Shown: positions 648 to 28,318 of the stretch, in pieces
How positions within the stretch are numbered: the first letter of the stretch is position 1
Layout of the letters: every line of letters begins with the position of its first letter
Assembly: GCA_043228905.1 (NCBI GenBank)
Contig: JBHGNT010000008.1
Location: 21,700,001 to 21,764,000 of the forward strand
Origin: Azolla caroliniana
Taxonomy: Eukaryota > Plantae > Polypodiophyta
DNA: 64,000 nt
Reading direction: 5' to 3'
Position numbers and translations under genes: made by a program
Notes under the pieces: generated by a model
What the model saw: the letters and a program-made list of their open reading frames with translations, nothing else
The model's database searches: none
What the model was told of the DNA's origin: nothing

Positions 648-1557
648 ACGGGTAGTCACCCCCGGTGGTGTGTATTTGAAACTCCAGAGTTACCCACAAA
701 TCCTTGCGCAAAGGATCGTTTGGAGCGGTTACGCAAAACACAAGCGGATTTATCTATTCATCTAAAACACACTCAACAAACACACAAGGTTAACGCAGAT
801 CGCCGTCGGCTTCCATCCAGTTTTAACATTGGCGATCAGGTATGGCTACTACGACGACACATCAAGACTACTCGTCGATGCGAGAAAATGGATTATCCGT
901 GATTAGGTCCTTTCTGTATTATCAAAAAAATTAATGATGTCGCTTTTCGTCTCGATCTACCTCTGCAACTTCGGATACATCCAATGTTTCATAGTTCTCT
1001 CCTCGAACCCTATCAAGACAACACCATCCCAGGTCATATTAAACAACCTCCACCCCCGATCGAACTTGAAGATGGACTTGAGTACGAGGTTGCCGCCATC
1101 CGATTCCAAGATTGTTCACAACAAGCTCTACTATTTAGTCGATTGGCTAGGATATAGTCCCAACGAGCGTACTTGGGAACCAATAGAGAATGTGACCAAT
1201 GCTCGTGCTCTTCTTGAAGACTTCCATCGTCAATATCCAGGCAAACCGGCTCCTCACACCAAAACGACTCATGACACTCGTCGTTTTAAAGGGGAGATAG
1301 TGTCATGATATGGCAAGACTCGAACCCATGACCTTATATTACATGGGTTGAGCTCTTACCATTAGGCTATGTATTGTTATGCGAAAGACATTATTTTCAT
1401 TTAAGTTTTACTATAGAAAATTGATGTATATTCCAGATTTCTTTGGAACATTCTAGAAACTTTAGGAGTACTGAGAACACTATAAAATGAGGCACAAGGC
1501 ATTATTTCGAACCAAATCAGTTCAACGCCAGACTTAAGCCTCCTAGCCTTCCTTACA
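648..1557 (+). mobile_element. 3' fragment of a Ty3/gypsy chromovirus (Tcn1-like): integrase C-terminus, chromodomain, PPT, 3' LTR
   Basis: Translations GDQVWLLRRHIKTTR..KMDY and YYLVDWLGYSPNERTWEP (chromodomain), with stops and frameshifts. PPT AAAGGGGAGATAG at 1288-1300. Homologous to the element at 21526-26205. Confidence 0.85.
1301..1557 (+). repeat. 3' LTR of the chromovirus fragment
   Basis: Starts TGTCATGA right after the PPT, the same start as the LTRs of the 21526-26205 element. TATAAAA at 1481. The end at CCTTACA (1557) is tentative. Confidence 0.65.
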
Positions 1558-1585
1558 TATTCAAGAGCGGTGGGGGAGGATAAAG

Positions 1586-3174
1586 ATGGATGAAGAATAT
1601 CTCATGAAGGCAATGTCAAAGATGATGATGGAATTTTCAAGAAAAGGGAAACGACGAGATGTGGCCCAACAAGTCGTCGAGAGTGTGATCAAGCAAGTCG
1701 ACTATTTCAACGATGTTGAAGTCCAAAATTTTCTAAAAGCCTACAATGCCAAGATGGATTCGAGATGTGTGAACGAAGCTATGACGTTGGAGTCATTTTG
1801 TCGCGTGGTGGCTGAACTGATCTACAAAGAGGTAAAAGAGCTTCGAGAAGCTCAGGATTCATGGGTGACTTTCGAGGAGGCTCTATTGGAGGCTTATGGC
1901 TACGAGAGACCAAAGGGACGAGGATAGCGTGAGTTCGACCAGTGGGTGGCATCGGTGAAGACCCACCAAAGCGCAAAACACGCATTCCTAGACTTCGAGC
2001 ATCATTTTTCTCAACTCTTGGGGCGGGAACAAAGATTGGTGGGGGTGGATAAGGTCCTATTGTTCGTGAAGAGAAGGTTCGATGGTAGTCGACATAGAGG
2101 CCATGAGGAGAGAGGCATTCAAGAACTTAAAGGTGCAAGTCGAGGCCAAAGAGAAGCTTAAAATGGAGATAAAACTCAGGCAAAAGGTGATCGAGGAAGA
2201 AGAGACCTGTCAACAAATGAGGATTAATGATGCGGCTAATACGAAGGCCCAGGTTCGGTACAACGGTACCACGGGAGAAGGTGTAGAACAAACCACCTTC
2301 TCATCCTATGGAGAAATGACGGCCAAGGATGAGGCCGATCACTCGAGGACGACGAATGCCACTTTGAGGGAGGATGAATGTTTCGGAACACATTTTGTAT
2401 CCGAAACATCGGGTGATGAAGGTGCAAGAACGAGAACGTCTTGTGCGATCGAGGGAGAAAGAGTGTGAGGTCGATGTGATTGAGAAGGTTGCCATGAAAA
2501 ATCACATCGAGTCAGAGGTGGCTATGGACGAGTCGACAGCGAATGGCCGTGTCGAGACTTTCCCAACACTTGATCTAGAGACTTGGGCAGTTGTGTCCGA
2601 GAGCCAACATGAGACCCAACAGAAGCAGAGTGGTGGGGAAGCAAAGATTGAAGCCAATGCGAATAACAATGTTACAATGAAGATGGATATGGACGAGTCG
2701 ATGGCAGATGGCCATGTCAAGACTTTCTCCACACTTGTTCCAGAGACTTGGGCAATTGCGTTCAAAAGCCAACGTGACACCCAAGAGACGAAAGGTGGCG
2801 GCAAGGAAGCGAAGGTCGAAGTTGATACATGCGACGAAGAGGGAAGCATAATCGAGGCTTGCTCGATCAATAAGGTCAATGGGTACAAGGCCCATGAGTC
2901 TGAAGAGACATCCATGGAGAATGGCGCCGAGTTGAAGAGGGTAGACGACGATCATGAGGACTTTCCCCACAAAGGTTCTAGAGAATCGGGCATTAACTGA
3001 TGTAAGATCCAAGAGACAGAAGGTGGCAGTGAGGAAGCAAAGGTCAAAGCCGATGCGAACAACCTTAAGGTGGAAGTGGTTGAGGGTAGCACGACAAAGG
3101 CGGACTACGAAAACATATGGATCCCTCCACACTCGTTCGAGAGACTATGGCATTAACCAATGTAAGACCCAAGA
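1586..3174 (+). pseudogene. Degenerate gag plus acidic-repeat ORF of the non-autonomous element (continues at 10097-10800)
   Basis: Broken ORFs 1586-1927, 1946-2161, 2082-2468 and 2374-3000. A unit like F(P/S/T)xxxxETxAxxxxxQxxTQ recurs here and at 10180-10620. Confidence 0.6.
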
Positions 3175-3618
3175 TGTTGAGATACAAGCTCAACATTGGC
3201 CGGATCGGCTGTGCAAGCCGAGAACCAAATCGGTTGGGATCGATCGGTTAGGCCGGACCAGTGCGTAAACCAGGTGCGTAAACCGATGCGTAGACCGGCG
3301 CGCAATGAGAAGTCGTAGCGGTGTGTAAACCGCGAGGCCGTTGGAAAGATATTCCGCATAGGAATATATTTTGGGAGTTAGTGTAGAGCTCACTTATGAG
3401 CATTGAAGTACGTGTCAGTACTTCTGTCAGTCCATATGGACTTGTATAAAAGTGCTCATTGAGCACATCCTATGTACAGATTGAGTATTATTTTTTAATA
3501 GAGTTTTTTGTGTGCATTCTCTCTGTCACTCCCGCGTATTGTGTATATTCAAGCTCTCCATTAAACCCACGCTTCTGTGTTCAGTTTTCTATTGCTTCCG
3601 CACGCTATTCTTTTAACA
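3175..3618 (+). repeat. 5' LTR of the copia at 3175-10091
   Basis: TGTTGAG..TTTTAACA. Direct repeat of 9673-10091 with extra GTGCGTAAACC-like units. Confidence 0.9.
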
Positions 3619-3707
3619 TGGTATCAGAGCGCAAGGGTTGAGAACCTTTGCAGCCGACCTTAGCTCAAGAAGAAAACCTAACCTTCGTAAAGAACAGGAA
3701 AAACAAA

Positions 3708-6700: not shown

Positions 6701-9672
6701 GTCGTGAAGATGACGATCATCCGCGTTTTACAGGCAGTAGCTACAGCAAAGGGGTGGCACTTACATCAGATGGATGTAAAGAATGTGTTCTTGCGAGGTG
6801 AGCTTGACAAACAGGTGTATATGGTACAGCCCCCCGGATTTCACCCCGGATTTCACTCTGGCAGTGTGGCAGTTGAAGAAGTCCCTTTATAGACTAAAGC
6901 AAGCCCCGCGTACTTGGAACGCGAAGATGATGCAACGATTGCGTCGAATGGGCTTTGCGACGTCAAAATCAGACTCCTCACTGTTCGTCCGGAAAGGTCG
7001 ACTTGGGCCGGTTAGCATTTTACTTTATGTTGATGATTTGGTCATCACCGGCGCCGACCTAGGTGAAATTAACCGCGTAAAGCTCCAACTCGCGGCATCA
7101 TTCGACATGAAGGATCTAGGGGACCTTCATTACGTCCTTGGGATCGAAGTGATCCGCACCCCTGAAGGCATACTGATCAGCCAACGGCATTACGTGTTGA
7201 GTATGCTCTTCAAATTCGGGATGGTCGATTGTAAGTCCGTCTCGACTCCTCTGGATAGAACCGTCAAGCTTCGCCCCGATTCCGGAAAGGTATAAGACCC
7301 GACGAGGTTCCGACAGATAGTCAGAAGCCTTATATACTTGACCATCACCCGACCAGATCTCAGCTACCCGGTCGGGATGATTAGTCAGTTCATGGCACGA
7401 CCTACCAAGGAGCATCTTCAATGTGTGCAACGCATACTATGGTACATAAGCGGCACTAAGGACCGGGGGCTACTATATCTGACCAGTATAGCCCCACAGT
7501 TGGTCGAATACACCAATGCCGAATGGGCCGGCAACGTCGTCAATCGCTGATCCACGTCCGGTTTCGCGTTCTCTCTTGGGAGTGCCACGATTGGGTGGAG
7601 TAGCAAGAAACAACCCACAGTTGCGTTGTCGAGCACTGAAGCCGAGTATAGAGGAGCAGTTGTCGCGACATGCGGAGGCATATGGTTGAAGCGGCTACTT
7701 AAGGATTTGCAGGTGGAGGTATCCGATCCAACGACAATTTACTGCGACAACCTCAGCAGCATCTAGCTAGCAAAGAACCCTGTCTTCCACACTTGGACTA
7801 AGCACATTGAGGTGCACTACCATTTTGTCCACGAGCGTGTACTCTCCGGTGAAGTCGAATTTCAGTATGTTCCGATGGATCGGCAGACCGCCGACATTTT
7901 TACCAAGCCCCTTGGTCTCGATAAGTTACGGCAATTCTCGGGTGTGCTTGGGTTGCGCCACCTCGATGTGCCGAACTTGAGGGGGAGAGAAGTCCCGGAT
8001 GACCACAGAAGGGATCCGGAAAGGAGCGGAAGAGACCGTGACGCCGAGTCGGATGACGAATTCAATTTCGGATCGGCTAAAGAGGGCGAGGGCGGATCCG
8101 CAGAAGATTCCAAAAGCAGACATAAGGGGATCAGTCGAAAGAAAGAGCCGAAACCAACCAAGTGTGGGGGAGACGAAGTCATGAAGGGCGAGAAGACCGA
8201 AGACGAGTTGAAGACAGCCAACGCAGACGAAAGCGAAAACCGATCAGAGGAAGTCGAGTCGGTTCGGATGTTTGATTCGGATACGCTGAATCAACTGAGG
8301 TCCAAGCCGAAGAGAGGGCAGCAGAAGAAACGCCAACACCGTTGTCGTAAAGATTTTCGGCAATGGTGTGAAAATCGCATAAAACATACGAAATCGAGTA
8401 GGAATCATTTAAACAAATAATAGTGAAAATACTATTTTAATTAAGTTTAATATCTTAGTACAAAAAGATGGAGGTCTTCAAGAGCTTTCGAATGCACTTT
8501 ACTACATAAGAAACGGACATGTAAGTCTCAAGTTATATGGGTAGGAAGTTTGCAAAGGAAAAGAGAAAGATAAAACTGTGAGATATCCCACATAGACAGG
8601 ACAAATAAAGATCTCACAATATATATAAGGCAGAACAAAAGCTATTATCTTTGTGTTTATGTGTGGAGCATAGAGAGTTCAAGGTGACTTGAACTAAGCT
8701 AATTGGATGAGTGGGTGTGGCCTAGCTACTTGTAAAAGCTTTTGGCCAACCAAATCCGGCGGCGGAGCCGGTGACCGGCAAGCGACTCAAGATGCGGACT
8801 GAACCGGACCGGGATGCAGACTGGGTCGGACCAAACGGATGCAAATCGGACGAATCGGTCGGGTGGTGTCTTAAAGATATTTGGTCCAAAAGCCTAATAG
8901 TATTTTGTGCATAAAAGAAAAAGATATAAACAAGACTTGAACTTTGCACCTCCAAGATAGAAACCAACAAGTTTACCATTAAACCAAATCATTTCTTTAA
9001 AAATTATATTTTTATCATTACAGCTTTACATGAGAATTCTCATATTAGAGCTTGATTGAGTGACATGTGATGCATGAGCGCCAAATGGCAAACATGCATC
9101 ACATGCATTCCATGCAGTATATGCATATCTTGTACCCTCATATGCATCATATGCATGGGAGCATCTATAAAAGGGTGGATGAAAAAAATTAAAAAGGGAG
9201 CGATATATTAATCAAGAAAATTAAAAGTAAGAAATTCGTTATCCAATTGATAATATATCTTGTCTCTCAAATCTAAAGTTAAAAGTTCAATCTTATCTCT
9301 CTCACTCTCTATCTCTCTCTCGCCATATCAATCTCTCTCAACCTAAAGTCAAGCATTTAAATCTCATATTAATCTCAATCTCTCGCAATCTATCTTAAAA
9401 ACCTTTCTCGCTAAAGCTAGTGCAAACTTCCAATCCTTCCAGTCCAAGACCCCGGTGGTTCCGCCTCGCGATTCGCACATAGTGACGGATCTTCACGACA
9501 CCGCGACAGCAACGGAGCTGAGAAGGGCCGCACAAGCACACAAGCCGACCGGAAGGGTCGAGGCGCGCGGAATCGAACAGGTCGAGGAGCGCGAGCAAGG
9601 CGTGAAGCCAGAAGGAACCGGAGCGTAGATCCAGAAGAGCGGATGGGACCTCAAGTTGAGCTTGAGGGAGAG
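3708..9672 (+). pseudogene. copia gag-pol pseudogene with a long charged C-terminal extension, interrupted by the solo LTR at 8343-9500
   Basis: Multiple premature stops and frameshifts across ORFs 3648-8420. Domain motifs are recognisable. Confidence 0.85.
8343..9500 (+). mobile_element. Solo LTR of the TGTCG..GACA family
   Basis: Termini TGTCGT and ACGACA. Flanks CCGT (8339-8342) and CCGC (9501-9504). Host coding rejoins across it (KRQHR|DSNG). Shares GCGCCAAATGGC/ATGCAT-rich blocks with 12931-13851 and has the U5 motif CCAAGACCCCGGTGGTTCCGC. Confidence 0.85.
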
Positions 9673-10091: not shown

Positions 10092-11022
10092 CAAGAGAAG
10101 GACGATGGCGGCGAGGAAGCAAGGGTTGAAGTTGGTGCATGCGACAAGGAGGTCAAGCAAAGCAGAATGACGGAAGCCGATGCGTGCTAGAGAGATAGCC
10201 AAGGAGATGGCCATGGAAAACACGACAAAGGAAAACGTTGATCAAGATGAGAATTCCTTCACACATGTTCCAGAGACTTCGGCAGTTGCATTTGAAAGAC
10301 AACGTGAGACCCAAGAGATGGAAGGCAGTGATGAGGGAGAGATGGAAGGTAGCGACGAGGGAAAGGTCAAAGCCGGTGTGCACTACAAAGAGGCCAAACA
10401 AAGTGTGACAACGGACGATGAGGGCCAAGCAGGCCAAGAGGATTTGAAAGGTGTTCCTCGGGAAGTGATCACGTCTTCTAATGTAAGGGAGGACACTAGC
10501 ATGAAGTTCAGAGGTATGATGGTCAACTCAAACGCGAGAGTTTACCACAACGAACGGCAGAAAGAGAGGCATGCAATATGGTCTCTTAGAGACCTCAATG
10601 TGAGCATGCACTTGAAGTGACTACGACGGGTAGTCAGCATCGACATTCGAACGAGGTCTTCTGAAGGCAAGCGTGGGACAAGAAAGAATGAAGGATCAAA
10701 GTTTCTTGACCAAGTAGAAAGACGGGATGAAGGTGGCACATACACAAATTGTGAAAGGTTATGCTCAGTAGGGACGAAGGAGGCCATCATGACAACCGGT
10801 CATGGCATTGCGAAGTGCGAGCGAACGATATGGTGGATAGGATGGCGACGATGGTTCGGTTGGAAGGAATGGACGAACTCAAAATGGAGGGACAAAGACA
10901 ATGCGGGCCAAGCACAAGAAAGGAGCAAATCAAATGTTGACAACCTTTGGCCCCACCACATCACTCTTTTCCTTCTTGGAAGTTGGCACATGCATGACGA
11001 TATGCAATTTGATGGGGGTGGA

Positions 11023-11684
11023 TGTTGTGATGTGGCGTGTTTAGTGCGAGAAAAAGTGAAAAATTGAGGATACACACATTTCACAATTAGTTATAAACAT
11101 GCAAATAAATCAATAATAAATAAACCTAAGGCCTATTGGCATCGAGTGCTTATAAAGGGGCAGAAGCTAAATAGGATTTGAGCCTTGCACCTCCAAGACC
11201 GGAGACAATTGACTTACCACTAAAGCTACTACTGAGTGCTTTAGATTTTGCATTATATTTCCTTCTCATATTCAGTATTCCATAGGAAACAAACGTATAA
11301 AACCGTGTACACAAAACCATGGTTTAAGCCTATGGTTTTGTGCATGTCATAAGTAAAACCGTGAGCACAAAACCATGGTTTTAGCCCATGGTTTTGTGCA
11401 TATCACAAGCATTGAGAGACCTATAAATGCCTCTAGTTGGGCTTGTGTAAGGGGGGGCTCAATATGTGATATCACCATCATCAATATAATACCATCATTT
11501 ATCTTCTTCTAATTATCTTCTCTTAAGTGTATCAATTTTCTTGATCTTTTCAAGTGTGACATTGTCTTCCTTGACTCAAACATCCACATCATCGTCTTTA
11601 AAATAACTTTGTGAACATCCTCCTCAGTCCAAAACCCCGGTGGTCCCGCTCAAGTAGCACACGCAGACGAGCATTTTCGTGACA
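11023..11684 (+). repeat. 3' LTR of the gag-only element (TGTCG..GACA family)
   Basis: TGTTGTGA (probable CpG-decayed TGTCGTGA)..TTCGTGACA. TATAAA near 11422. U5 motif CCAAAACCCCGGTGGTCCCGC. Followed by ACGG and host copia coding. Confidence 0.8.
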
Positions 11685-12930
11685 ACGGCAAGTGGAAGTT
11701 CTGTCGGGGAAACCTCATAGTGGCCTAAGCACAGAAAAAGGGCACATCGTATATGATGCATGCCCGACTATGCAAGTCGGAAGCAAATGTAGCAGCCAAC
11801 TCGAGTAGTGAGTTATGGCATAAGAGGCTTGGCCACATGAGTGAAAAGGGAATGCATATCCTGGCCGACCAAGAACTTCTCCCATAAGTGGAAGGAGTGC
11901 ACTTGGAGAAGTGTGTGGACTGCATAGTTGGAAAGCAGAACAAAGACGCATTCCACCCAAGACCACCGAGAAGAAGAGAAGTGCCACTGGAACTGGTACA
12001 CACGGATGTGTGCTATGTAGATGCTCCATCGCATCAAGGTGGACAGTACTTCATGACATTCATCGATGAATATAGTTGGAAGTTGTGGGCTTTCGTACTA
12101 AAGTCGAAGGACCAAGTATTGTTGTTCTTTAAGGAGTTCCAAGCAAGAGGCAGAAGAGAGTCAGGTCGGAAGTTGCAGGTTGTTCGAACCGACGACGATG
12201 ACGAATATAAAGGGTAGTTCAAAGAATAATGCAAGGCCCAAGGTATTTGAATCGAATATATAGTGTCAAAGACCCCTGAGTTGAACATGCTTGCAGAGAG
12301 GATGAATCGAACAATTATGGAAAGAGTAAGGAGCATGTTGTCGCATGCTAAGCTGCCAAAATCCTTCTAGGTTGAGCCGATGTATATGGTTGTTTACATG
12401 ATCAACATATCTCCATCAGTACCATTGAAAGGTGATGTCCCACATAGGATGTGGACAGGAAAGGAAGTCTCCTACCGGCACCTGAGGTGTTCGAATGTTT
12501 AGTGTATATGCATGTGGCTAAGGATCAGAGGTCGAAGCTCAACAGTAAGTCGAAACCATGCATATTTCTCGGGTACTCAGAAGATGAGTTCGGCTACAGG
12601 TTATGGGACTTAGTCGATAAAAAGGTGGCGAGGAGTCAGGATCTAGTCTTCTTGGAAGACAAGACAATAGAGGATTGGAAGTAACAGAAGACGGAACCAA
12701 CTTCCCAGTTGACTCTGAATACCATCGACTCAAGAAAAATCAAACAGCCAAATCTTAGTCGGTCGACTTGGAACAACCAACCAATATATACGAGTTGGAG
12801 TTGGCAAATCTTCTAAAGTCGATCGAGGAATACGAGTCGGACTCGGCTAACCCTGAGTGACCAATAGACATATATGAACCCGAGCCAAGAGAAGAGTCGG
12901 TAGAGACATCCGAACTGGAGCCAAGAACGG

Positions 12931-13851
12931 TGTCGGGGTAGTTGTGGTTTGTGCGGCGAAGTCGCGGGGACTAAGGTTAAGGGGAGTTGAAGAAACTTAA
13001 CTTTTAATAAGGCTTGTATGGTGATGTTAGAAAGGTTAAGAGTACCAAGAAGAAGAATTACAAGTAATGTGTGAGAGAGAGAGACGGGAATAGATAGAAG
13101 ATAGAGATAATATATGATTCAAGAAGCAAGATAGAGACAAAATATTATTTAAGAAGGAAGATTGAGACAAAGTATGAATCAAGAAGCAAGGGTATTTGAT
13201 ATAAACATGATGTATATTAAAAATATAATATTTTACCAACTTTACAATCCTTGATCGCAAGATGAATCTTTTCAATACCGACCCTTGATTTGAACCCACG
13301 ACCTCAACTTCGAAACAAGAGGTTCTCCACCCAATGAGCTAGTCTTCTCTACTTGATTGTCTTATTTTCTCACTCTCTCTTGATTGCTCACCTTGTTTTC
13401 CCTTTCCCCTCTTTATATAAGTGTTGCCATGCATATGGTAATGTATGGGAGCATGGCATGCATGTAATGCATGAGTTACATGTAATGCATGATCGCCATT
13501 TGGCGCACATGCATTGCATGTGATGAATGATGGCTATGTATGAAAATAGATATGGGATAAGTATAATGATGAAAATGCATTCTAAAATAATTAACCTAGC
13601 TTAGTGGTGTATGCTTGGTGCTTGGTATACAAGGTTGAGGGTTCAAGTCCCTCAATTTTACGTAGTACAATATATAGCTTCATTCTTATATCATGAAGCA
13701 CATTTATTACACACTTTTACAAATAAATAGCCTAGCCTAGTGGTATGTACATTGTACATCGTATATAAGGATGTGGGCTCAAGTCTCTCAAATATTATTA
13801 AATACAACATTTAAGCTCATTTTTATATCGTGAAGCACATTCTTCACGACA
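12931..13851 (-). mobile_element. Solo LTR of the TGTCG..GACA family, reverse orientation
   Basis: Termini TGTCGG and CACGACA. 4-bp TSD ACGG at 12927-12930 and 13852-13855. 13494-13520 is the reverse complement of the block at ~9063-9100. Confidence 0.85.
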
Positions 13852-14149
13852 ACGGGTGGAAAGAGATACCCACTCAGAGAAAGAAGAGCACCAACTACAT
13901 ATGTCAATCAATACATCCTGTTGACTCACGAAGGTGAACTAGAGTGCTATGAAGAAGCAGGAGCCAATGAGCACAAAGGAAAATGGTTGAGTGCATGCAA
14001 GACGAGATGGACTCCTTGCACGAAAATTATACCTATGGTGGAGCTACCAAAGGGTAAGAGAGCACTCAGGAATAAATGGGTCTACAAGGTGAAGACTGGA
14101 GAAGTCAACAGCACACCCAGATATAAAGCCCGTATTGTGGTGAAGGGGT

Positions 14150-14756
14150 TGTTGGGATTACGGTCCCTTCGGATGGGATGGTCGGATGTCGGAGACGAAT
14201 GCCGACAAGCCCGGTTTCGGTTTCGGAACCGGATGATGAAGACCCCGACTTCGGAGCCGGATGACGAATGTACCCGGAGAGAGATCCGGATGCAGGGACA
14301 TATCCGTGAATATGTCTGCTAAGGGCCCCTGAGGCTATAGTTGTAAATAGCCCCAAAGTCATATATGTATAAATATGACTTAGGGCAAATAGTTTTAGGG
14401 TTGCTATTCATTTTTCTGTTTTTCCACTCTAGAGGAGTGAAGAGAGAGTAGCCGTGAGAGAGAGAGAGAGAGATAGAGCGCGAGAGAGGAAGAGGACGAC
14501 GCCTCTGTGTATTTCCGCCGCCTGTGGCGAGGACAGCGAGCTCAAGGTCGTCGCCTTGCAGCTCGCCATTGTATACCTTTCTGTGCATAGTGTTGGTTTG
14601 GAGTCTTGTACTCCCGTGGTTTTTCCCGTACAGGGTTTTCCACGATAAATCGTGTGTCCTCTCTATTTTTGCATTTCCCATTTTCTGCTCCATTGATTCG
14701 CGCTTACTCGGTTGTGGCCGAGTGGTGAAGGTGAATCGAAGGGTCGATCCCCAACA
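14150..14756 (+). repeat. 5' LTR of the young copia
   Basis: TGTTGGG..CCCAACA, direct repeat of 18874-19480. Confidence 0.97.
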
Positions 14757-14786
14757 ATCTGGTATCAGAGCGAGTTGCTGCAGAAA

Positions 14787-17700
14787 ATGGAAGGCGGCGG
14801 CAGCGGGCAGCCGGGGATGATGGTGCTGAATGCGCAGAATTACGCCGACTGGAAGATCAAGATGGAGGATCTTCTGATTGTTCGGGACCTGTACGAACCG
14901 ATTGACAGGTCGGAAATACCGAAAGGGGTACTTGAGTCGGAGTGGAAGCTCCTGAACCGGAAAGCCGTAGCGACGATCCGACAATATGTCGATGTAAGCG
15001 TCCTACAACATGTGGCGAACGACACCAACGCATATGAGATGTGGAAGAAGCTGTCGGGCCTCTACGAGAGGAAGAATGCGTTGAACCGGACCTCCCTGAT
15101 GAGGAAGATAGTGAATCTCAAGTACCGGGATGGCGAGAGTATGGTGGAACACGTAAGCACGTTCATGGGATTCGTGAATCAGCTTGCGGCGATCAAGTTC
15201 CCGTTGGAGGATGCAATGCAAGCCATCATCCTGATGTGTACATTGCCGGAAAGCTGGGAGAACTTGGTGGTGACTCTCAGCACCTCCTGCACCGAAGATA
15301 ACTTGTCCTTGCAAACGGTAAAGACAAGTATTTTGAACGAAGAAGCGCGTCGGAGAGATAAAGAACCGGCCTCCGACCCGAAGGCGCTGCTTACCGAATC
15401 GGATCGGGGAAGACAATGGAACCGGAGTCCGCAAAGACGGGAGAAGTCGGGGACCCGGTCGCAGTCAAGAGGAAGGCCCACATGCTTCCACTGTGGGAAA
15501 CCGGGGCACTTCCGAAAGAATTGTCGGCATTACCGAAAAGACAACGGAGCCGACGACACCGATTCGAAGAAGTCACCGGAGAGAAACGGTGCATACCGGG
15601 GAGCCACGGACCGGAGAGGTTCGGATCGGCGAGGGCAGGACCGGAAAGGAACAACGGCACTCGCGGCAAGTGAAGAAGAAATCATGCTCATCACCGAAGA
15701 AGGTGAACTAAACGTTGCCGGCGATGAGACGACCTGGGTGGTCGATTCCGGAGCATCGTTCCACCTGACCCCGGAGAGAAGATACTTCTCATCCTACACA
15801 GCCGGTGAGCATGGCTGTGTTCGGATGGGAAATGAAGGTACGTGCCGGATTGCCGGCATCGGAGACGTGTGGTTAACAACCCCGACCGGATGCAAAATGC
15901 TGCTGAAGGATGTCCGACACGTTCCGGAGGTTCGATTGAACCTGATTTCGGCCGGGAGGCTAGACGATGAAGGCTACACAGGTAGCATCCGGAACGGCGT
16001 AACGAAGTTCAGCAAGGGGAGCCTGATAGTGGCTCGGGCCCGGAAAGACAACACACTGTACCTGATGAATGCCCGGTTATGTCCGGAAGAGCTGAATGTG
16101 GCAGCCGACACTGCCGGTGAGCTGTGGCACAAAAGACTGTGCCACATGAGTGAGAAGGGGATGAAGAGGCTTGCAGAAGACAACCTTATTCCAGTGAAGC
16201 ATGTGCACCTGGAGAAGTGCACCGACTACCTGGCCGGTAAGCAGAACCGAGCCTCCTTCCACTCAAGGCCACCGACGAGACGTAGCGCACCATTGGAGTT
16301 GGTGCACACGGATGTGTGTCAGGTAGAAACGAAGTCACATGGCGGAGCCCAGTACTTCGTAACATTCATCGATGATTACAGTCGGAAGCTGTGGACGGCA
16401 CCGTTGAAGACAAAGGACCAAGTGTTGTGCGTCTTCAAAGAACTTCACGCGAGAGTGGAAAGGGAATCCGGCAAGAAGCTGAAGGCGATACGAGCGGATA
16501 ACGGAGGGGAATACCGGGGGCGGTTCCAGGAGTACTGTCGCTCGAAGGGAATCCGGCTCGAGTTTACTGTGCCGAAGACGCCGGAACTGAACGGGCTGGC
16601 CGAGAGGATGAACCGGACCATAATGGAGAGGGTCCGGAGTATGCTGGCGCATGCGAAATTACCCAAGGGGTTTTGGGCTGAGGCAATGTCGACGGCGACA
16701 TATGTGATAAACAGATCACCCTCAATACCTTTGGACGGAGACACGCCGCAGAAAGTGTGGACCGGTAAGGAAGTGTCCTACCGGCATCTGAAGGTGTTCG
16801 GGTGTCTCGCATACGTGCATGTGGCAAAGGACCGGAGAGGAAAGTTAGATCCAAAGACCCAGCCATGCATATTCCTCGGTTACGGCGACGACGAGTTCGG
16901 CTACCGAGTATGGGACCCGGTCGACAAGAAGATATTCAGGAGTCGAGACATCATCTTCATGGAGGACAAGACACTCGCCGACTGGGAGTCGGAGAAGAAG
17001 ATGAAGAGCTCCAAGTCGACCGGTGAGGATCAACTCTACGAGGAGCAGTTCCGACCGGCAAGGGACCGGTTAGCACTCGAGGATCCGGCCGAAGACGGTG
17101 AAGAAACAGAACCGGCCGAAGAAGATGAAAATGATACCGGAACCGGCCCCGATCCCGAAATGGATTCGGATGAAGAAGAAGAATCGGAAGAACCGGTTAC
17201 CGAAGCTCCCGAACGGAGATATCCTCTAAGAGAGAGGAGGGCCCCCCGGAGATTTCCGGATCCAGAGCACGTGCTGCTAACCGACGAGGGGGAGCCGGAG
17301 AGCTTTGAAGAAGCAAAGCACGACACCCAGAGCCGCAGGTGGTTGAGTGCCATGCAGGACGAGATGGATTCCCTGCATGAGAACCATACATATGAACTTG
17401 TGGAGTTGCCGAAAGGAAAGCGGGCACTTCGAAACAAGTGGGTGTTCAAGCTGAAACCGGGAGATGCCGGAAACCCCCCGAGATACAAAGCCAGGATCGT
17501 GGTGAAGGGGTTTCAGCAGAAGAAGGGCGTCGACTTCGACGAGATATTTGCCCCGGTAGTGAAGATGACCTCCATCCGGATGGTGTTGAGCATAGCGGCA
17601 AGCATGGACCTCGAGGTAGAACAGATGGACGTGAAGACGGCATTCCTTCACGGTAACCTCGATGAAGAGATCTACATGCAGCAACCGGAAGGATTCGAGA

Positions 17701-18863
17701 AGAAAGGGAAGGAGCACCTGGTATGCCGGTTGAAGAAGAGCCTTTACGGACTGAAGCAGGCTCCCCGGCAATGGTACCGGAAATTCGACTCCTTCATGAC
17801 CGACGAAGGGTACCTCAAAACGCAGTCCGACCACTGCGTGTTTGTGAAGAAGTTCGAAGGAGGAGACTTCCTAATACTCCTCCTGTACGTGGACGACATG
17901 TTGATCGTCGGACGGGACCAGGTCAAGATACGGATGCTGAAGAAGGCTCTTCACCGAACCTTCTCAATGAAGGACTTGGGTCCGGCGAGACAAATACTAG
18001 GGATGCACATCATCCGGGACCGGAAGAAGAAGCAGTTGTGGCTGTCACAGGAGAAGTACGTGACGAAGGTGCTTCACCGGTTCAACATGTCGGAAGCAAG
18101 ACCGGTCGGATCGACCCTCCCGGCAAACTGCAAGCTGTCCAACAAGCAAAGTCCCAAGACAAAGGCTGAAAAGGAGGATATGATGAAAGTTCCATATGCC
18201 TCAGCCGTCGGGAGCTTGATGTACGCCATGGTGTGTACGAGACCGGACATCGGATATGCAGTCGGAGTGGTGAGCCGGTACATGAGCAATCCCGGCAAAG
18301 AGCATTGGAACGCGGCCAAGTGGATACTCCGATACCTGAAGGGCACGGCAAACGTGTGCCTCCGATTCGGCTCCGGTAAGCCCGAACTCGACGGCTTTAC
18401 CGATTCGGATATGTCGGCTGATGCAGATACCAGCCGGTCCACATCAGGGTATGTGATGACGTATGCAGGGGGAGCTGTTTCATGGCAGTCGAGGCTGCAG
18501 AAGACGGTTGCGTTGTCAACTACGGAGGCGGAGTACATGGCGGCTGTTGAAGCCGGCAAGGAAGTAATATGGATGAAGGACTTCATTAGAGAGCTCGGTA
18601 TCCGGCAGGAGGAGTACCGACTCTACTGTGATAGTCAGAGTGCAATCCACCTTGCGAAGAACGCGGCCTATCACTCCCGGACGAAGCACATCCAGCGAAG
18701 ATATCACTGGATCCGGGAAAGGATAGAAGACAAGGAGTTCGTGCTGACGAAGATCCACACGGACGAGAACGGGTCGGATATGCTGACCAAGGTGCTCACA
18801 CCCGACAAGCTGGAAGCATGCTGGAAGAGGATCGGATTGGAGAGACATCCCATGCCGAAGTGA
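14787..18863 (+). CDS. copia Gag-Pol polyprotein (~1358 aa from the first ATG after the PBS)
   Basis: Uninterrupted ORF with zinc knuckle CFHCGKPGHFRKNC, protease WVVDSGAS, integrase HTDVC..ADNGGEY..AERMNRT, RT QMDVKTAFL/YVDD and RNase H SDMLTK. Confidence 0.97.
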   Translation: MEGGGSGQPGMMVLNAQNYADWKIKMEDLLIVRDLYEPIDRSEIPKGVLESEWKLLNRKAVATIRQYVDVSVLQHVANDTNAYEMWKKLSGLYERKNALNRTSLMRKIVNLKYRDGESMVEHVSTFMGFVNQLAAIKFPLEDAMQAIILMCTLPESWENLVVTLSTSCTEDNLSLQTVKTSILNEEARRRDKEPASDPKALLTESDRGRQWNRSPQRREKSGTRSQSRGRPTCFHCGKPGHFRKNCRHYRKDNGADDTDSKKSPERNGAYRGATDRRGSDRRGQDRKGTTALAASEEEIMLITEEGELNVAGDETTWVVDSGASFHLTPERRYFSSYTAGEHGCVRMGNEGTCRIAGIGDVWLTTPTGCKMLLKDVRHVPEVRLNLISAGRLDDEGYTGSIRNGVTKFSKGSLIVARARKDNTLYLMNARLCPEELNVAADTAGELWHKRLCHMSEKGMKRLAEDNLIPVKHVHLEKCTDYLAGKQNRASFHSRPPTRRSAPLELVHTDVCQVETKSHGGAQYFVTFIDDYSRKLWTAPLKTKDQVLCVFKELHARVERESGKKLKAIRADNGGEYRGRFQEYCRSKGIRLEFTVPKTPELNGLAERMNRTIMERVRSMLAHAKLPKGFWAEAMSTATYVINRSPSIPLDGDTPQKVWTGKEVSYRHLKVFGCLAYVHVAKDRRGKLDPKTQPCIFLGYGDDEFGYRVWDPVDKKIFRSRDIIFMEDKTLADWESEKKMKSSKSTGEDQLYEEQFRPARDRLALEDPAEDGEETEPAEEDENDTGTGPDPEMDSDEEEESEEPVTEAPERRYPLRERRAPRRFPDPEHVLLTDEGEPESFEEAKHDTQSRRWLSAMQDEMDSLHENHTYELVELPKGKRALRNKWVFKLKPGDAGNPPRYKARIVVKGFQQKKGVDFDEIFAPVVKMTSIRMVLSIAASMDLEVEQMDVKTAFLHGNLDEEIYMQQPEGFEKKGKEHLVCRLKKSLYGLKQAPRQWYRKFDSFMTDEGYLKTQSDHCVFVKKFEGGDFLILLLYVDDMLIVGRDQVKIRMLKKALHRTFSMKDLGPARQILGMHIIRDRKKKQLWLSQEKYVTKVLHRFNMSEARPVGSTLPANCKLSNKQSPKTKAEKEDMMKVPYASAVGSLMYAMVCTRPDIGYAVGVVSRYMSNPGKEHWNAAKWILRYLKGTANVCLRFGSGKPELDGFTDSDMSADADTSRSTSGYVMTYAGGAVSWQSRLQKTVALSTTEAEYMAAVEAGKEVIWMKDFIRELGIRQEEYRLYCDSQSAIHLAKNAAYHSRTKHIQRRYHWIRERIEDKEFVLTKIHTDENGSDMLTKVLTPDKLEACWKRIGLERHPMPK

Positions 18864-18873
18864 AGGGGGAGTT

Positions 18874-19480
18874 TGTTGGGATTACGGTCCCTTCGGATGG
18901 GATGGTCGGATGTCGGAGACGAATGCCGACAAGCCCGGTTTCGGTTTCGGAACCGGATGATGAAGACCCCGACTTCGGAGCCGGATGACGAATGTACCCG
19001 GAGAGAGATCCGGATGCAGGGACATATCCGTGAATATGTCTGCTAAGGGCCCCTGAGGCTATAGTTGTAAATAGCCCCAAAGTCATATATGTATAAATAT
19101 GACTTAGGGCAAATAGTTTTAGGGTTGCTATTCATTTTTCTGTTTTTCCACTCTAGAGGAGTGAAGAGAGAGTAGCCGTGAGAGAGAGAGAGAGAGAGAG
19201 AGCGCGAGAGAGGAAGAGGACGACGCCTCTGTGTATTTCCGCCGCCTGTGGCGAGGACAGCGAGCTCAAGGTCGTCGCCTTGCAGCTCGCCATTGTATAC
19301 CTTTCTGTGCATAGTGTTGGTTTGGAGTCTTGTACTCCCGTGGTTTTTCCCGTACAGGGTTTTCCACGATAAATCGTGTGTCCTCTCTATTTTTGCATTT
19401 CCCATTTTCTGCTCCATTGATTCGCGCTTACTCGGTTGTGGCCGAGTGGTGAAGGTGAATCGAAGGGTCGATCCCCAACA
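18874..19480 (+). repeat. 3' LTR of the young copia
   Basis: Direct repeat of 14150-14756. Confidence 0.97.
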
Positions 19481-20540
19481 GGGGTTTCAACAAAAAAAGG
19501 TTGTCGACTTCGACAAGATATTCGCACCAGTCGGGAAGATGACATCAACAGAACTGTTCTAAGCATAGCTATCAGCATAGATCTAGAGATCGAACAGTTG
19601 GATGTCAAAACAACATTCTTGCACGGGGAGCTGGATGAAGAAATCTATATGTAGTAGCCCGAAGGCTTTGTGGAGAAAGGGAAAGAGAACCTGGTCTGTC
19701 AACTGAAGAAAAGCTTGTATGTTCTGAAAAAACTCCACGCCAATGGTACAAGAAGTTTGAGTCCATCATGCAAGAACATAGGTTCCAGAAAACATAGGTT
19801 GATCACTATGTGTTTTTCAAAAGGTACGATGAAGGTGCCCTCTTGATTCTCTTATTATATGTGGATGACATGTTGATAGTCGGACAAGACATGAAGAGGA
19901 TCATGAGCTTGAAGAAAGCTCTAGGCAAGTCATTTGCCATGAAAGATCTTGGACCGGCTAAACAGATTTTAGGTATGCACATATTCGGGATAGAACTAAG
20001 AAAGTGTTGTGGTTGTGACAAGAGAAGTATGTGACAAAGATCTTGGAGAGATTCAACATGTCAGAAGTGAAGCTAGTCGGCTCTATGTTGCCAAAAATTT
20101 GCAAGATGAATGTTAAGCAATGCCCTAGAGGGGAGAAAGAAAAGGCTAAGATGAGGAAAGTATTGTATGCCTTGGCCATCAGCAGTTTAATGTATGTTAT
20201 GCTCTGTACGAGACTAGACATAGCATTTGTTGTGGGAGTAGTAAGCCGATACATGAGTAATCCACGAAGAGAGCATTGGGCAGCAGTGAAGTAGATACTC
20301 AAGTACTTAAAAGGCACGTCGGGGGTGTGCCTCAGGTATGGTGTCAAAAAACCTGTACTCGAAGGTTTTACCGACTCAGACATGTCAGAAAACTTGTATT
20401 CGGACTCGAGTCGGTTCGCGGCAGGGTACGTGATGACATATGCAAGGGGAGCAATGGCATGGCAGTAAAGACTTCAGAAATTTGTGACTTTGTTGACCAC
20501 ATGACTAACCAACTCCACCCATAGGAGTGAAGGGGGAGTT

Positions 20541-21166
20541 TGTTAGGAATATGTTCCTCCTATGGGAGGAGCCTACTGGTCGGGCTGAGAGCCGACAATC
20601 GATGACAAACAGGAGTCAACATGGAGAGTCGACATTATAGTAAGCGATTCAAGTCAAAGACATGACCAACTAGTCGGGATGATTGGACAGTCAGCTAGTC
20701 GAATCGACTAGTCGACCAAGTGGTTGATTAACGGTTATAATTATTATTATAATAATAGAAGTGACAATAGTAAGTGACTACATTTGTAAATAGCCCATAG
20801 TGAGTGTGTATAAGTATAAATACACCTAGGACAAACTTTAAGTGAGTAATGTACATTAGAGTTTTTGTAGGTATGATTTGTAGAGCGAAGACTAGAGAGT
20901 GCGTGATAGAGAGCGACAACAGAAGGTTAGGGAACCTGCCAAGAACCCTAAGTGGTTATCAGCTACTTATCAAAGAAGAGTTGCAACCGTTCCTTGTAGT
21001 CTCTGTTGTATAGTGGAATATTTGTTCTCCCGTGGTTTTCCCCCCATTTAGGGTTTCCACGTAAAACTATGGGCACTGTGTATTTTGGTGTATTCTACTG
21101 TTTTTCCGTGTTCTGTATGTACATTTCAGCATATCTTCCTCACAGATCTACAATCCCATCCCTTCA
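20541..21166 (+). repeat. 3' LTR of the old Tork-like copia
   Basis: Starts TGTTAGG after the PPT. Contains CTCCCGTGGTTTTCCC..GGGTTTCCACG, like the young copia LTR. The end (CCCTTCA) is tentative. Confidence 0.7.
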
Positions 21167-21525
21167 GTATTGAGGGTGATGAACTAGTATAGGGGAAAAC
21201 AATTGCTTGTTGACCGAGGTTTCCAAGTCTAACTCATAAGACGAGCATAAGACAAGGATAAAATGGTGACCCATGTCCAACGATTGGACCTTTATTGAGG
21301 CCAAAGATTGCAAGACCCTAGATATAGATGTCATAATAATAGAAGTGTGGGGAGTCAAATGGCGTGACAAAGAGTTGCGTCAAAATGCAAATGGTTGCTT
21401 TGATATTAGGTAAGGAATGTCCAAATATTTATCAATGAAGGTCTTCATGACCTAGAGAATCCTAGCTTCAATCAATCAATCCTGATGAGGGTGAGGAAAA
21501 GAGGGCCAGTTAAAGAGGAATGTAG

Positions 21526-21964
21526 TGTTAGAACAAAGCAAGAGATTGAACGATTGAAGGAAGGTATAAGAGAATAGAAGAAGAGAGGAGAATGGATTGA
21601 TAAGAGAAGAGTGGATTTATTAGAATAGAATGAGTACAAGGATGAGTTGGATACAAGGTAGGCTTGGAGCTGAAGCCTAGTGTTGATTCGAACTGATTTG
21701 ATATGATCTATTTGTCTCTATTTAATAGAATAGCTTAGAGATTTCTAGAATGTTCTGGACCTAGAATATTCTAGGATGTTCTAGAAGATTTCTAGAATGT
21801 TCTAGAAAGTTCCAGAAGTTTCTTTGATACAATAATCACTATGAAAAGTAGCTTTTATCATTTCACATCCTGATAGGTTACCTTAATGGTTAAGCTTTGA
21901 ATTTCGTAATACGAAGTTTTGGGTTCAAGTCTAGGTGAAACAAAATGTTCACGGATTCATGACA
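21526..21964 (-). repeat. 3' LTR of the Tcn1-like element
   Basis: Direct repeat of 25748-26205 with small indels. Confidence 0.92.
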
Positions 21965-24900
21965 TTATCCCTCCTCTTAAAACGACGAGTGGAAGGAGTT
22001 GTTAACAATGCAAGACCGGGTTTGTTGGGATAGTGACGATGGAAGTCGTCGATAAGAGCTTGAGCATTACAAACATTATCGACAGGTTTCCATGTGCGAT
22101 CACTCGGGGTATACCCTAGCCAATCAACTAGATAATACAAGTTATTGTGCACAATCTTAGAATCGAGAATGGAGGCTACCTCGTACTCTGGGCACGATTG
22201 GGAATCGAGCTGGTGTGGCAAGGTTCCAAAAGAGAGCTATGAAAGACTAGATGAAGCCACAAATTTGCAGGAAGATCAAAACTGAATGTTGCATCATTAA
22301 TCCGCTCCATGGTGACAAAAGGACCCAAGCGTTTATAATCTAGCTTATCACATGGTCGAGTAGTCTTTATGTGACAACGTAACAACCATACCTGATCAAC
22401 AATCTTGAATGGAGACAGAAGACGATGTTGATTTGTGTGGGCCTTATGTTGGGCTTGAGCTTTCTGAAGATGTGAAGACAACTCGAACTGGAGGTGTTGC
22501 AGTCGGTGGAGGTGCTACTCCGCACTAGGGTTTGGTGAGATCACTAGAATGTCCAAGAGACACCATTGAGGATGGTTGCCAATGTAGGCATAGAAAGGTG
22601 TGACCTTGGTAGAAGAGTGTATGATGTTATTGTACGCAAACTCTGCAAAATGCAATATATGACTCCAATCATCTTGTTGATAACTGATGAAACATTGAAG
22701 ATACTGCTCAAGTGTTTGATTTGTGCGCTCTATTTGGCCATCAGTTTTAGGATGATATGCTGAAGAGAGTTTGCAAGAGATTGGAGCCTGTTACATAGGT
22801 GCTTCCAAAAGTGAGAGATAAATTGCGGACCAGGATCACTAATGATGTCGTTTGGAAGACCATGATGGCGAAATACTTCACACATAATGATATCTGTTGT
22901 TTCTTGACTACTAATGCTCTTTACACAGGGAAAAAATGTGCCATCTTGGTAAATCAATCCACTACGGTTAAAATAGCATCAAAACCCTGTGAAGGTGGCA
23001 GATCTGTAATGAAATCCATAGAAATTGACTGCCATGGCTTGCTCGAAGTCGACAATGGTTGTAACAACCCAATAAGGATGATGCTTAGGCATTTTGGCTC
23101 GACAACATGTGTCACATGTGCAAACGTAATCTTCAACAAATTGTTGTAAATGAGGCCACCAAAATTATCACTTCAATAGCTCCATGGTCTTGGCAATACC
23201 AAAGTGTTCGACCATACGGGCATCATGACAATGCTCCAACACTCGAAGGCGTAGTGATCCATCAAGGACATAAAGGAGATTCTTGTAGAAAAGTAAGTTA
23301 TCTTGCCTCTTGAACTCCTTATAGCACCGAGATGTCCCTGGCAATGCATGATGTGGACCAAGGTGGGCAAAGACATCCTTAGCAAAATCATCAAAGTGAA
23401 GTTGTTGTCTAATAGTATCAAGAAGACTTGAATCCAATGGCGTGGCACAAACCGTGGTTGCTTGTAGTTTTGTTGGACCAAGGAGAACTTGCTTTTGATT
23501 GTCGAAAGCTGGATCTCCAAGGCGAAGTGCCAAATATGAGCGTCGAGATAGAGCATCTACTTACCCTTGTTGTTTCCCTGGGCGGAAAATGATCTTGAAA
23601 TCAAAACGAGTTTAAATATTGCGCCCACCGAGCTTGTCACCTATTTAGCACTCGAGCCGTCTGAAAATATGTAAGATTTTTGTGGTCACTATAAATGATG
23701 ATTTGATGAGGCAAACCTTCCAAGAAATGTCGCCATTGCGCAAAAGAGTCGACCACAGCTAGTAACTCTTTATCATGCACCTCGTAGTTGATCTCCGCAA
23801 CATTAAATTTTCTTGAGTGAAACGCGACTAGATGCAACTGCCCATCTTCACCTAGCTGTGATAGGATGTTCCCCAATGCAAAGTCGGATGCATCTGCCTC
23901 AATGGTAAATGGCTTTTCTGGATCAACATGAGCTAAAAAAGGAGCTGATGTGAATGCCTCTTTCAATTGAGTATAGGTTTTGTCCGCTTCAAGAGTCCAA
24001 ACAAATGCTTGATTTTTCTTGGTGAGTTGAGTGAGCGTCAATACAATCTTCGAATAATTCCATATGAATTTGCAGTAGAAGTTGGCAAATCCAAGGAAAC
24101 ACTGGACATTGCGAACGGAACTTGGAGTATGTCATTCCAATATTGTTTGAATTTTCACTTGATCCATGAAGATACCTTTCGATGAAATGATGTAACCCAA
24201 GAACTCAACTTCTTTGCAATCAAAACTGCACTTCTCTAGTTTGGCATAAAGACCATACTCTCTTAAGCGTTGGAGTACCGTTCGCACATGTATATCATGC
24301 TCCACCTGTGTTCTAGAGTAAATCAATAGATCATCTAAATAGATGATGAGAAGATATCTAGAGAATCTCGGAAAATGTCATTTGCCATATGTTGAAACAA
24401 GCGGGAGCATTTGTGAGCCCAAAAGGCAATTACTATATACTCGAAACGGCCATACCGAGTGCAAAATGCAGTCTTCCACTCATCTCTCGGTCGAATATGG
24501 ACAAGATTATATACAACCCTTAGATCAATTTTGGTAAAATGCTTTGCCCCACCAATGCACTCTAAAAGACTGGAAATTAAAGGTAGCGCATACCTATTTC
24601 TTATTGTGACTTTATTTAATCCACGATAATCCACGACCAAACGAAGTGAGCCGTCCTTTTTCTTCACGAAAAAGATAGGAGCACCAGCTGGAGACTTTGA
24701 ATGTCGAATAAACCCACTTGCAAGATTCTCGTTGATGTATGATCGAAGAACCTCAAGCTCCGTTGGTGACAGATTCTAGATCAGACCCCATGGTGGCTCT
24801 TTTCCTGGCTGTCGATCAATGGGACAATCATATGGTCGATGCTTTGGAAGTACACTAGCTTTGACTTTGTCGAAGACATCAGCATATTCTTGGTACTTTT

Positions 24901-25747
24901 TAGGAATGTATACCTCTAACTTCCCTTGAGTGTCATTAGAAGGTGCAACTGATATGGCAAATAAGAATAAATCTTCTTTTGCTCCTTCTTGGCATAATTG
25001 TTGTAGGGTGATGGTTGAAATCTGATGAAGAGGAACAACGTGTTTGGTAGAGAGTGAATTGGTAACACTATGTTTTTCAAGAGGAGGATCTTGGGTTCGA
25101 CCCTTGACTACTATGTTTCCTTTTGAAGGGCACCTAATATATCGTCGTCTCCAATCAATTCTTGGGTTGTGTAGCTCGAACCATGGCAAACCAAGGACTA
25201 TTGGATGCTCATGGCTACGGATTATGTTAAAGGAAAGTACACATCCTAGATCACCTAAGAGTATGTGTATCGGCTCAGACTCCTCGAATATCTTTCCAAA
25301 AGCTATGGGACGTCCATCAATCACTACTACAGAAATTGGGCAAGGAAGTTTATGCAAGGGTAAAATCTCTATCCATGAAACAAGAATTGGCTCCGATATC
25401 TAAGAGAGCTGGGACATGAAGTTGACAACTTGGTGTCCTAACTTGTACTTGGGCAGAGAAAACTCTACTAACATGCTTGGAAGAGATGGAACCCACACTA
25501 GGTTGTACAGATCTAGGACTGTCCAACCAAATGGCTCCAATTTTGGCCGGACTTATTCGTTTGACTCCTCTGAAACCTTATGTAGATCTTCAAGCAGTCG
25601 TTGATTCTCTAGCTCTAGTGATGCAAACTTGTTTTTGAGATTCTCCATTTCTACAACAAGGGCGAGGTATTCTTGTGGGTTGGTAGTAGCCATGGGTACT
25701 AACTAGTGTTTGTGGAAGCGATAAAGGAGAAGAAGTTCAAATCAAAC

Positions 25748-26205
25748 TGTCAGAACAAAGCAAGAGATTGAACGATTGAAGGAAGGTATAAGAGAAGAGA
25801 AGAAGAGAGGAGAATGGATTGATAAGAGAAGAGTGGATTTATTAGAATAGAATGAGTACAAGGATGAGTTGGATACAAGGTAGGCTTGGAGCTGAAGACT
25901 AGTGTTGATTCGAACTGATTTGATATGATCTATTTGTCTCTATTTATAGGTTTCTATAGAATAGCTTAGAGATTTCTAGAATGCTCTAGAATGTTCTAGA
26001 CCTAGAATATTCTAGGATGTTCTAGAAGATTTCTAGAATGTTCTAGAAAGTTCCAGAAGTTTCTCTGATACAATAATCACTATGAAAAGTAGCCTTTATC
26101 ATTTCACGTCCTGATAGGTTACCTTAATGGTTAGGCTTCGAATTTCATAATACGAAGTCCTAGGTTTAAGTCCAGGTGAAGCATAATGTTCACGGATTCA
26201 TGACA
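25748..26205 (-). repeat. 5' LTR of the Tcn1-like element
   Basis: Minus strand TGTCATGA..TTCTGACA, with TATAAATA at 25941-25948. Confidence 0.92.
26031..26063. promoter_or_regulatory. Perfect 7-unit heat-shock element in the LTR U3 (copy at 21790-21822)
   Basis: TTCtaGAAtgTTCtaGAAagTTCcaGAAgtTTC, alternating nGAAn/nTTCn pentamers ~80-115 bp upstream of the LTR TATA box. Confidence 0.75.
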
Positions 26206-28107: not shown

Positions 28108-28318
28108 TTCGGTTGATTCCTTTTGGCTAGGAAATGAGTTTAGCAAATTCGATTGCTTCCTTTTGGCTAGGAAATGCGTTTAGCACATTCGATTGCTTCC
28201 TTTTGGCTAGGAAATGCGTTTAGCACATTCGATTGCTTCCTTTTGGCTAGGAAATGCGTTTAGCACATTCGATTGCTTCCTTTTGGCTAGGAAATGTGTT
28301 TAGCACATTCGATTGCTT
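28108..28318. repeat. 40-bp minisatellite, ~5.3 copies
   Basis: Unit TTCGATTGCTTCCTTTTGGCTAGGAAATGCGTTTAGCACA repeated head to tail without spacers. Confidence 0.95.

Follow-up and report, generated by a model that had tools for sequence, protein, structure and literature searches.

A tRNA-type A/B-box cassette held antisense in the LTRs of gypsy retrotransposons: a candidate TFIIIC/Pol III docking site

Why should the long terminal repeats (LTRs) of gypsy retrotransposons carry what look like the internal promoter boxes of tRNA genes? The question is raised by 64,000 nt of DNA assigned to Azolla caroliniana (assembly GCA_043228905.1, contig JBHGNT010000008.1, positions 21,700,001 to 21,764,000, forward strand), hereafter the window, within which all positions are given unless a locus is named. 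The original prediction, made from the letters alone, listed eight tRNA-like units in two gypsy lineages and proposed that they serve as insulators against silencing or as antisense RNA polymerase III (Pol III) promoters. Here we report that the unit, a tRNA-like A/B-box cassette of about 54 nt covering tRNA positions 8-62, is supported by sequence comparison as an inherited module of tRNA type whose sequence is constrained and whose position and orientation are strongly biased. The cassette is real, selected and clade-wide; what it does we infer.

All eight stretches are present where they had been placed. When the window was scanned with textbook A- and B-box motifs, which were not trained on the units, seven of the eight were among the top eight matches, all above 20 bits and completed by a new site at 55502; the remaining unit, at 8931, ranked twelfth with 18.5 bits. 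Sixty local dinucleotide shuffles gave a mean of 0.42 matches above 20 bits and a maximum of two. A profile trained on 23 non-redundant units from Tcn1-like loci outside the window recovered all eight units above 16 bits, a score that no match exceeded in 30 shuffles. Two sites had been missed earlier: a B-half at 55511-55563 (+), in which the variable loop and B box are intact and the A box is decayed, lying in low-copy DNA with no evident LTR, and a weak antisense unit in pol at 25052-25104 (+).

The units occupy LTRs of two gypsy lineages, Tcn1-like (chromovirus) and Phygy-like. In Tcn1-like element A, the unit (1316..1369, -) lies 15 nt from the edge of a 3' LTR at 1301..1550 (+; TATA box at 1481), which follows the chromodomain open reading frame 907-1308 and a purine tract; its right end is truncated and that boundary approximate. 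Tcn1-like element B carries one unit in its 3' LTR (21879..21932, +, in 21526..21964, -) and one in its 5' LTR (26120..26173, +, in 25748..26205, -), and is flanked by the target duplication TGTAG (21521-21525 and 26206-26210). Among Phygy-like LTRs, a solo LTR at 8343..9500 (+; TATA box at 9166), inserted in a copia element, holds the unit at 8933..8986 (-), and the 3' LTR of a gag-only element at 11023..11684 (+; TATA box at 11422) holds that at 11174..11228 (-). A second solo LTR, at 12931..13851 (-; TATA box near 13419), belongs to a high-copy family and holds three, at 13286..13341 (-), 13597..13650 (+) and 13733..13786 (+).

Seven of the eight are antisense to their LTR and lie upstream of its TATA box, as had been claimed, and the unit at 13286 is indeed the exception, in sense orientation and with the TATA box about 70 nt upstream of it. 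Because the units at 21878 and 26119 sit in the two LTRs of one element, and those at 13596 and 13732 form a tandem duplication (76% over 121 nt), the eight units represent five insertions: elements A and B and the three Phygy-like LTRs. The reported absences also stood, with no unit in the five copia LTR stretches or in either LTR of the gypsy element at 56985; an LTR remnant at 1-647 likewise contains none.

The probable clades of the carriers were judged by their coding and target sequences. A chromodomain after integrase, a feature of the Tcn1 clade, is recognized as PF00385 in 907-1308, and homologous DNA is present in element B (21526-26205, 4.7 kb), which has reverse transcriptase, RNase H and integrase domains, whose LTRs differ by 17 substitutions in 439 aligned columns, and whose relatives repeat at about 5.3 kb. 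The Phygy clade is marked by an NCGN target; the solo LTRs at 12931 and 8343 are flanked by ACGG/ACGG and CCGT/CCGC, and ACGG follows two further LTR ends, so that four insertions of this second family lie at ACGG/CCGT-type 4-mers (641-651, 8339-8342/9501-9504, 11678-11688 and 12927-12930/13852-13855). None of the unit-bearing Phygy-like LTRs in the window is joined to a reverse transcriptase. The internal part of the gag-only element lies at 1560-3174 and 10092-11022; its gag has 29% identity (E 1e-13) to that of the 56985 element, whose LTRs lack the unit despite this kinship. At 1550-1560, the truncated LTR of element A joins directly to the gag region of this Phygy-like element, which has no 5' LTR here. 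Contigs of four runs, under three organism labels, cover the 12931 LTR far more deeply than its outer flanks, a depth that is no copy number, and in all three labels they bridge the units to their LTR neighbours. The units are thus part of the family and not a one-off insertion.

Searching with the chromodomain frame yielded 79 proteins, and an alignment of 33 of them led to 77 loci from metagenome contigs. A unit lies within 150 nt after the coding match (chromodomain), just inside the LTR, in 55 of the 77, and it is antisense in 55 of 55, which bears out the predicted bias in position and orientation. The proportion is 51/67 among loci with at least 120 nt downstream and 26/29 among high-coverage contigs. 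The 16 loci without a unit comprise four G+C-rich relatives (host perhaps fungal), four with no LTR there, seven in which the unit is deleted or decayed, and L045, a high-coverage family whose LTR is different. In 51 of the 55 units the A-to-B offset is 43 or 44 nt, values that the scan mildly favours, while the distance from unit to LTR edge varies from 10 to 62 nt. Eight further matches were found in the loci, five in other Tcn1-like LTR copies, one in pol and two in unclassified repeats; of these repeats, one (L036, 250-540) holds three units in mixed orientation and the other (L073, 611-665) a single one. Two scans of viral contigs found no relative.

Thirty-two of the 55 loci have a readable coding stretch, and among them 344 pairs are saturated at fourfold-degenerate sites (identity 0.38). 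In these pairs identity is 0.94 at core box positions, 0.41 in the middle spacer, 0.67 over the A box, 0.74 over the B box, 0.84 in the variable loop and 0.36 in the 45 nt upstream, figures that are descriptive only because pairs share ancestry and core positions were used for detection. The view that the boxes are conserved and the spacers diverged is thereby borne out, with the amendment that conservation of the variable-loop motif (positions 44-48) equals that of the boxes. An earlier run on 19 loci, hand-picked mostly for coverage and representing 12 families, gave the same picture. G46, T47, G53, T54, T55, C56 and A58 are invariant (12/12), C61 is kept in 9/12, and positions 57, 59 and 60 vary as the TFIIIC consensus allows; in terms of the B-box consensus GWTCRANNC, the five core letters are present in 12/12 families and the final C in 9/12. 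The A-box consensus is T8, G10, A14 and G18/G19, and T8, A14, G18 and G19 are each present in 11/12. In all 13 loci examined, A/T makes up 73-83% of the 60 nt upstream of the A box.

What has been conserved is not an RNA fold. Cloverleaf pairing across 21 diverse units was 54.1%, compared with 56.5% after shuffling, and RNAalifold predicted no consensus pair on the aligned units. The T-arm of the unit at 13596, described as perfect, is so in that copy, but this does not extend to the units in general. ARAGORN called no tRNA in the window or in any of the 56 loci, out of the 77, that were submitted to it, nor did an Rfam scan of the whole window; the best Rfam tRNA score, for the unit at 13597, was 17.4 bits over model positions 8-63 only (cut-off 29). 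As the stems are not kept, the unit is neither a tRNA nor a tRNA-shaped RNA, and we reject both a tRNA gene (no call, a partial model match and no covariation) and a conserved RNA structure. Insertion of tRNA-derived short interspersed elements (SINEs) is rejected for the eight units as well, since no tails or target duplications of their own were seen around them and the loci show a single orientation.

Nor does the cassette serve in priming or as the element's own promoter. Tcn1-like LTRs carry a TATA box, and the site following the 5' LTR is complementary at 11-12 of 12 positions to a stretch 32-33 nt after the TATA box (in element B, 25734..25747, -, 11/12, 32 nt); site and stretch covary over four variants. 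On this covariation the Tcn1-like elements are self-priming and do not use a tRNA primer, and with self-priming and a TATA promoter in place the unit is neither a primer-tRNA site nor the promoter. We also considered pairing of the RNA 5' end with the anti-B-box in the 3' unique (U3) region, as the start of element B resembles a B box, and rejected it because the 5' end follows the self-priming site and the U3 box does not. The A/T-rich tract upstream of the A box adjoins an enhancer array, 110-180 nt from the TATA box in most families. Between unit and TATA box, many Tcn1-like LTRs contain TTCnnGAA arrays (window 21700-21830 and 25950-26050, -; L010, L016, L022, L028, L030), presumably heat-shock-element-like, with five copies in element B. 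A further motif, GCCAAATGGC, stands among CATGCA repeats in Phygy-like and some Tcn1-like LTRs (window 9070-9090 and 13490-13520; L021, L031, L033) and includes GCGCCAAA, which we take to be E2F-like; the stretch in common measures 31 nt (90%) and hints at exchange of LTR modules.

Our preferred answer, held at about even confidence, is that units fixed antisense in the outer U3 act as DNA, as a site at which TFIIIC/Pol III is predicted to dock. The cassette is predicted to bind TFIIIC, TFIIIB would be loaded on the A/T-rich tract between cassette and LTR enhancer, and the docked complex would shield or open the element's polymerase II (Pol II) promoter after insertion in silent chromatin; both the binding and the benefit to the element are predictions. 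Since U3 is copied from the 3' to the 5' LTR in each cycle, the site would come to lie at the outer 5' edge of every new insertion and look onto the DNA that flanks it. Published work is cited here and below for the passages that bear on these points. TFIIIC binding is determined by the letters GWTCRANNC, and Pol III complexes, once assembled in yeast, phase nucleosomes, stop the spread of silencing and stop stray Pol II initiation (PMC4228148). It is these effects, together with B-box variation that matches the TFIIIC consensus and the A/T-rich upstream tract, that lead us to favour docking on DNA. We count the chromodomain of the carrier elements on the same side; type I chromodomains bind methylated H3K9 (PMC6317226).

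Several observations weigh against this interpretation. The loci are not independent samples, as 73 of the 77 come from 16 assemblies with neighbouring accession numbers, and the conservation figures are subject to the limits given with them. G10 of the A box is not conserved, and the fixed spacing and invariant G46 and T47 exceed what a TFIIIC model needs; the distance between type 2 boxes is variable (PMC4228148). Yeast tRNA genes (tDNAs) are roadblocks to transcription (PMC4228148), and by analogy a Pol III complex bound in the 3' LTR would obstruct the element's own transcript. In Arabidopsis, tRNA genes that lie in clusters are methylated and silent although their boxes are intact (PMC7544208), and in the passages concerned a review of plant barriers cites TFIIIC barriers for yeast and animals only (PMC9540200). 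The unit is also dispensable, being absent from L045, the four G+C-rich relatives and the 56985 element, and the sense copy downstream of a TATA box and the copy in pol of one clade fit poorly with a barrier at the edge.

In the main rival, the cassette works as an antisense Pol III promoter and the RNA itself matters, running from the 3' LTR into the purine tract and the end of integrase (double-stranded RNA or small-RNA self-regulation) and from the 5' LTR into the flank. We consider this possible but improbable. It would account for the retention of both boxes and of the A/T-rich tract, Pol III cassettes do exist in retroviral U3, in foamy viruses (PMC7693620), and seven of the 12 families have their first T4 run 255-1027 nt downstream, where the DNA encodes integrase. 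In the other five, however, it comes within 11-41 nt, so that a nearby poly-T terminator is not common to the families, and such an RNA would have no conserved fold and no conserved CAA start motif, a motif described in PMC7544208, in the aligned columns upstream of the unit. TFIIIC binding is common to this account and to docking, and only RNA data tell them apart. Constraint on the genomic RNA appears unlikely. Here U3 would complement the D, variable and T loops of a host tRNA in a Ty3-like pairing that bridges the ends, dimerises or packages the RNA. Place and direction are as in Ty3, in which the T and D arms of the primer tRNA pair with U3 (PMC5371799), a fixed register with kept loops and unkept stems suits an intermolecular duplex, and the Phygy-like elements in the window have a tRNA-type primer site. 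Yet the self-priming Tcn1-like elements need no primer tRNA, G and T vary no more than A and C do, although G-U wobble should free them, and the spacer fits no single sequence across families (0.41).

Two further explanations have little to recommend them. Elements that target Pol III start sites might use the cassette as a landing pad or be drawn off by it as a decoy. This has a precedent in the established targeting of Ty3-type elements, but is very improbable here: no insertion lies upstream of any A box in the window, homology breaks off within 30 nt on the upstream side of the A box in only one (L026) of the 46 loci that extend at least 120 nt beyond it, and the Phygy-like insertions obey the NCGN rule instead. 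Least probable, and already largely refuted, is that the units are neutral relics: heads of tRNAs or SINEs, long since dropped into LTRs and passively carried. Old low-copy elements do lose or degrade the unit (seven loci), and low-copy B-halves outside LTRs mean that a dispersed donor may exist; but core letters are 0.94 identical where silent sites and spacer are at background, all 55 of 55 loci show one orientation, and the eight window units were seen with neither tails nor target duplications of their own. Random SINE copies, the stated alternative to the original prediction, do not account for the units either.

The original prediction favoured convergent acquisition by unrelated lineages, which we regard as only one possibility. 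Both lineages are gypsy elements of one host group, they share unit spacing and profile, and a profile trained on Tcn1-like units recognizes those of Phygy type. The 12931 LTR has a 31-nt upstream motif in common with Tcn1-like L031/L033 (90%) and aligns to an L015 LTR over 79 nt at 70%. The common motif and cross-recognition fit an exchange of LTR modules as well as convergence, and such exchange between Phygy-like and Tcn1-like elements is possible on these similarities; 54 nt are too few for a tree that would separate convergent from shared origin. The antisense unit in pol suggests at least one separate capture. It is in frame, in a length-variable linker after the protease, and confined to the clade of element B (relatives L010-L015), in which the linker is longer than in L004/L005/L023; further copies lie at 1010-1063 in L010, 2653-2706 in L014 and 2953-3005 in L015 (all -), scoring 13.5-19.1 bits in the loci and 8-9 in the window copy.

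We infer that the cassette originated from a tRNA or SINE. The B-half at 55511-55563 adjoins a MINDY-like gene in a low-depth region that one contig under a further organism label covers, and a few others of low depth have just this piece (35-45 nt) in common with it; judging from these matches, there may be room for an old dispersed donor. A bolder version of the docking interpretation, which we offer as tentative, is that heterochromatin-seeking gypsy elements carry a chromatin boundary that is portable: the stub of a captured tRNA promoter, which recruits TFIIIC/TFIIIB to the outer edge of each new insertion, is kept in 12 or more families, has passed to a second lineage and was recaptured in pol.

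The setting of these elements is plant nuclear DNA, with nested copia and gypsy elements at 1-27 kb, host genes at 36-56 kb and a further gypsy element at the end of the window. At 14149-19480 (+) a young copia, whose 1388-aa polyprotein frame is uninterrupted and whose LTRs are 99.8% identical, lies within an older copia. The host genes include an Sgf11 exon (36704-37120, +), a 1002-aa PPR protein with a 306-nt repeat period (40457-43465, -) and an exon of a MINDY deubiquitinase (53528-53875, -). We also noted a 40-nt tandem array (28068-28358), a degenerate array of about 29-nt units (29100-29715), a long TATG-type microsatellite (35950-36600) and a 240-nt inverted repeat (44696-44933).

These observations touch on how elements that aim for silent chromatin are expressed. 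Barriers of tRNA type have been shown in yeast and animals and, in the literature passages covered, not in plants; a portable boundary, if true, would be both a transposon-borne anti-silencing device and direct evidence for such barriers in plants. A 54-nt cassette with single invariant letters in a very high-copy LTR family allows both questions to be addressed by a one-base change. Annotation of SINEs or tRNA pseudogenes by their boxes will also pick up LTRs in this host group.

The carriers themselves resemble described clades. Tcn1 and Phygy (Neumann 2019, PMC6317226; Novikova 2010, PMC2864245) share with them the chromodomain and self-priming and the NCGN target preference, respectively, and self-priming chromoviruses are reported from moss and club-moss and an NCGN-targeting Phygy from Physcomitrella (PMC6317226), occurrences that on their own would make a moss the probable host. 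For Tcn1 LTRs, the passages of both papers that match our terms describe TATA and CAAT boxes and no tRNA-like cassette. Titles and abstracts of the papers listed by our searches contain no description of such a cassette in moss gypsy LTRs, Repbase and subscription journals being outside the scope of that search; since "not a few" Repbase LTRs hold tRNA-like pieces (PMC10886601), an unremarked entry may exist.

As for the cassette, the tDNA and extra-TFIIIC (ETC) boundary sites of budding yeast (PMC4228148) likewise keep the B-box letters and stand beside, and divergent from, a Pol II promoter; they are host loci with experimentally shown function, whereas the present units are mobile, in a plant and known from sequence. 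Similar in form are the divergent tRNA-like elements upstream of trypanosomatid U2 snRNA genes (PMC4950102), non-coding stubs kept for their A and B boxes, although these drive a Pol III snRNA gene and the neighbour here is a TATA-type LTR promoter. The bipartite primer-binding site of Ty3 (PMC5371799) also has, in U3, a complement to the T and D arms of a tRNA, but Ty3 primes from tRNA-iMet and the Tcn1-like elements self-prime. The foamy virus miRNA cassette (PMC7693620) is a Pol III unit in the U3 of an autonomous retroelement; it encodes structured pri-miRNA hairpins, while no fold is conserved here.

Cassandra, a TRIM (one of the terminal-repeat retrotransposons in miniature) that had been named as the precedent, does carry an internal Pol III promoter in a plant LTR; as summarized in PMC10886601, that promoter is 5S-derived, type 1 and sense, in a non-autonomous element, and its transcription has been shown, in all of which it differs from our cassette. 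Closer is Helenus/TRIMp3 (Kojima 2024, PMC10886601), in whose LTRs there is a tRNA-like stretch with conserved A and B boxes. Helenus elements are short (311-1263 bp) and non-coding, and the cassette is thought to be their own promoter, whereas the elements described here are protein-coding, 4.7-5.3 kb long, and have a TATA box and self-priming. In the Selaginella LTR of Helenus the cassette is sense; here it is antisense in 55 of 55 loci and in seven of eight window units. Autonomous partners are expected in that paper not to share such LTR sequence (PMC10886601), so that even if antisense transcription should prove to be its role, an antisense Pol III unit present throughout a clade of autonomous plant retrotransposons would be unexpected.

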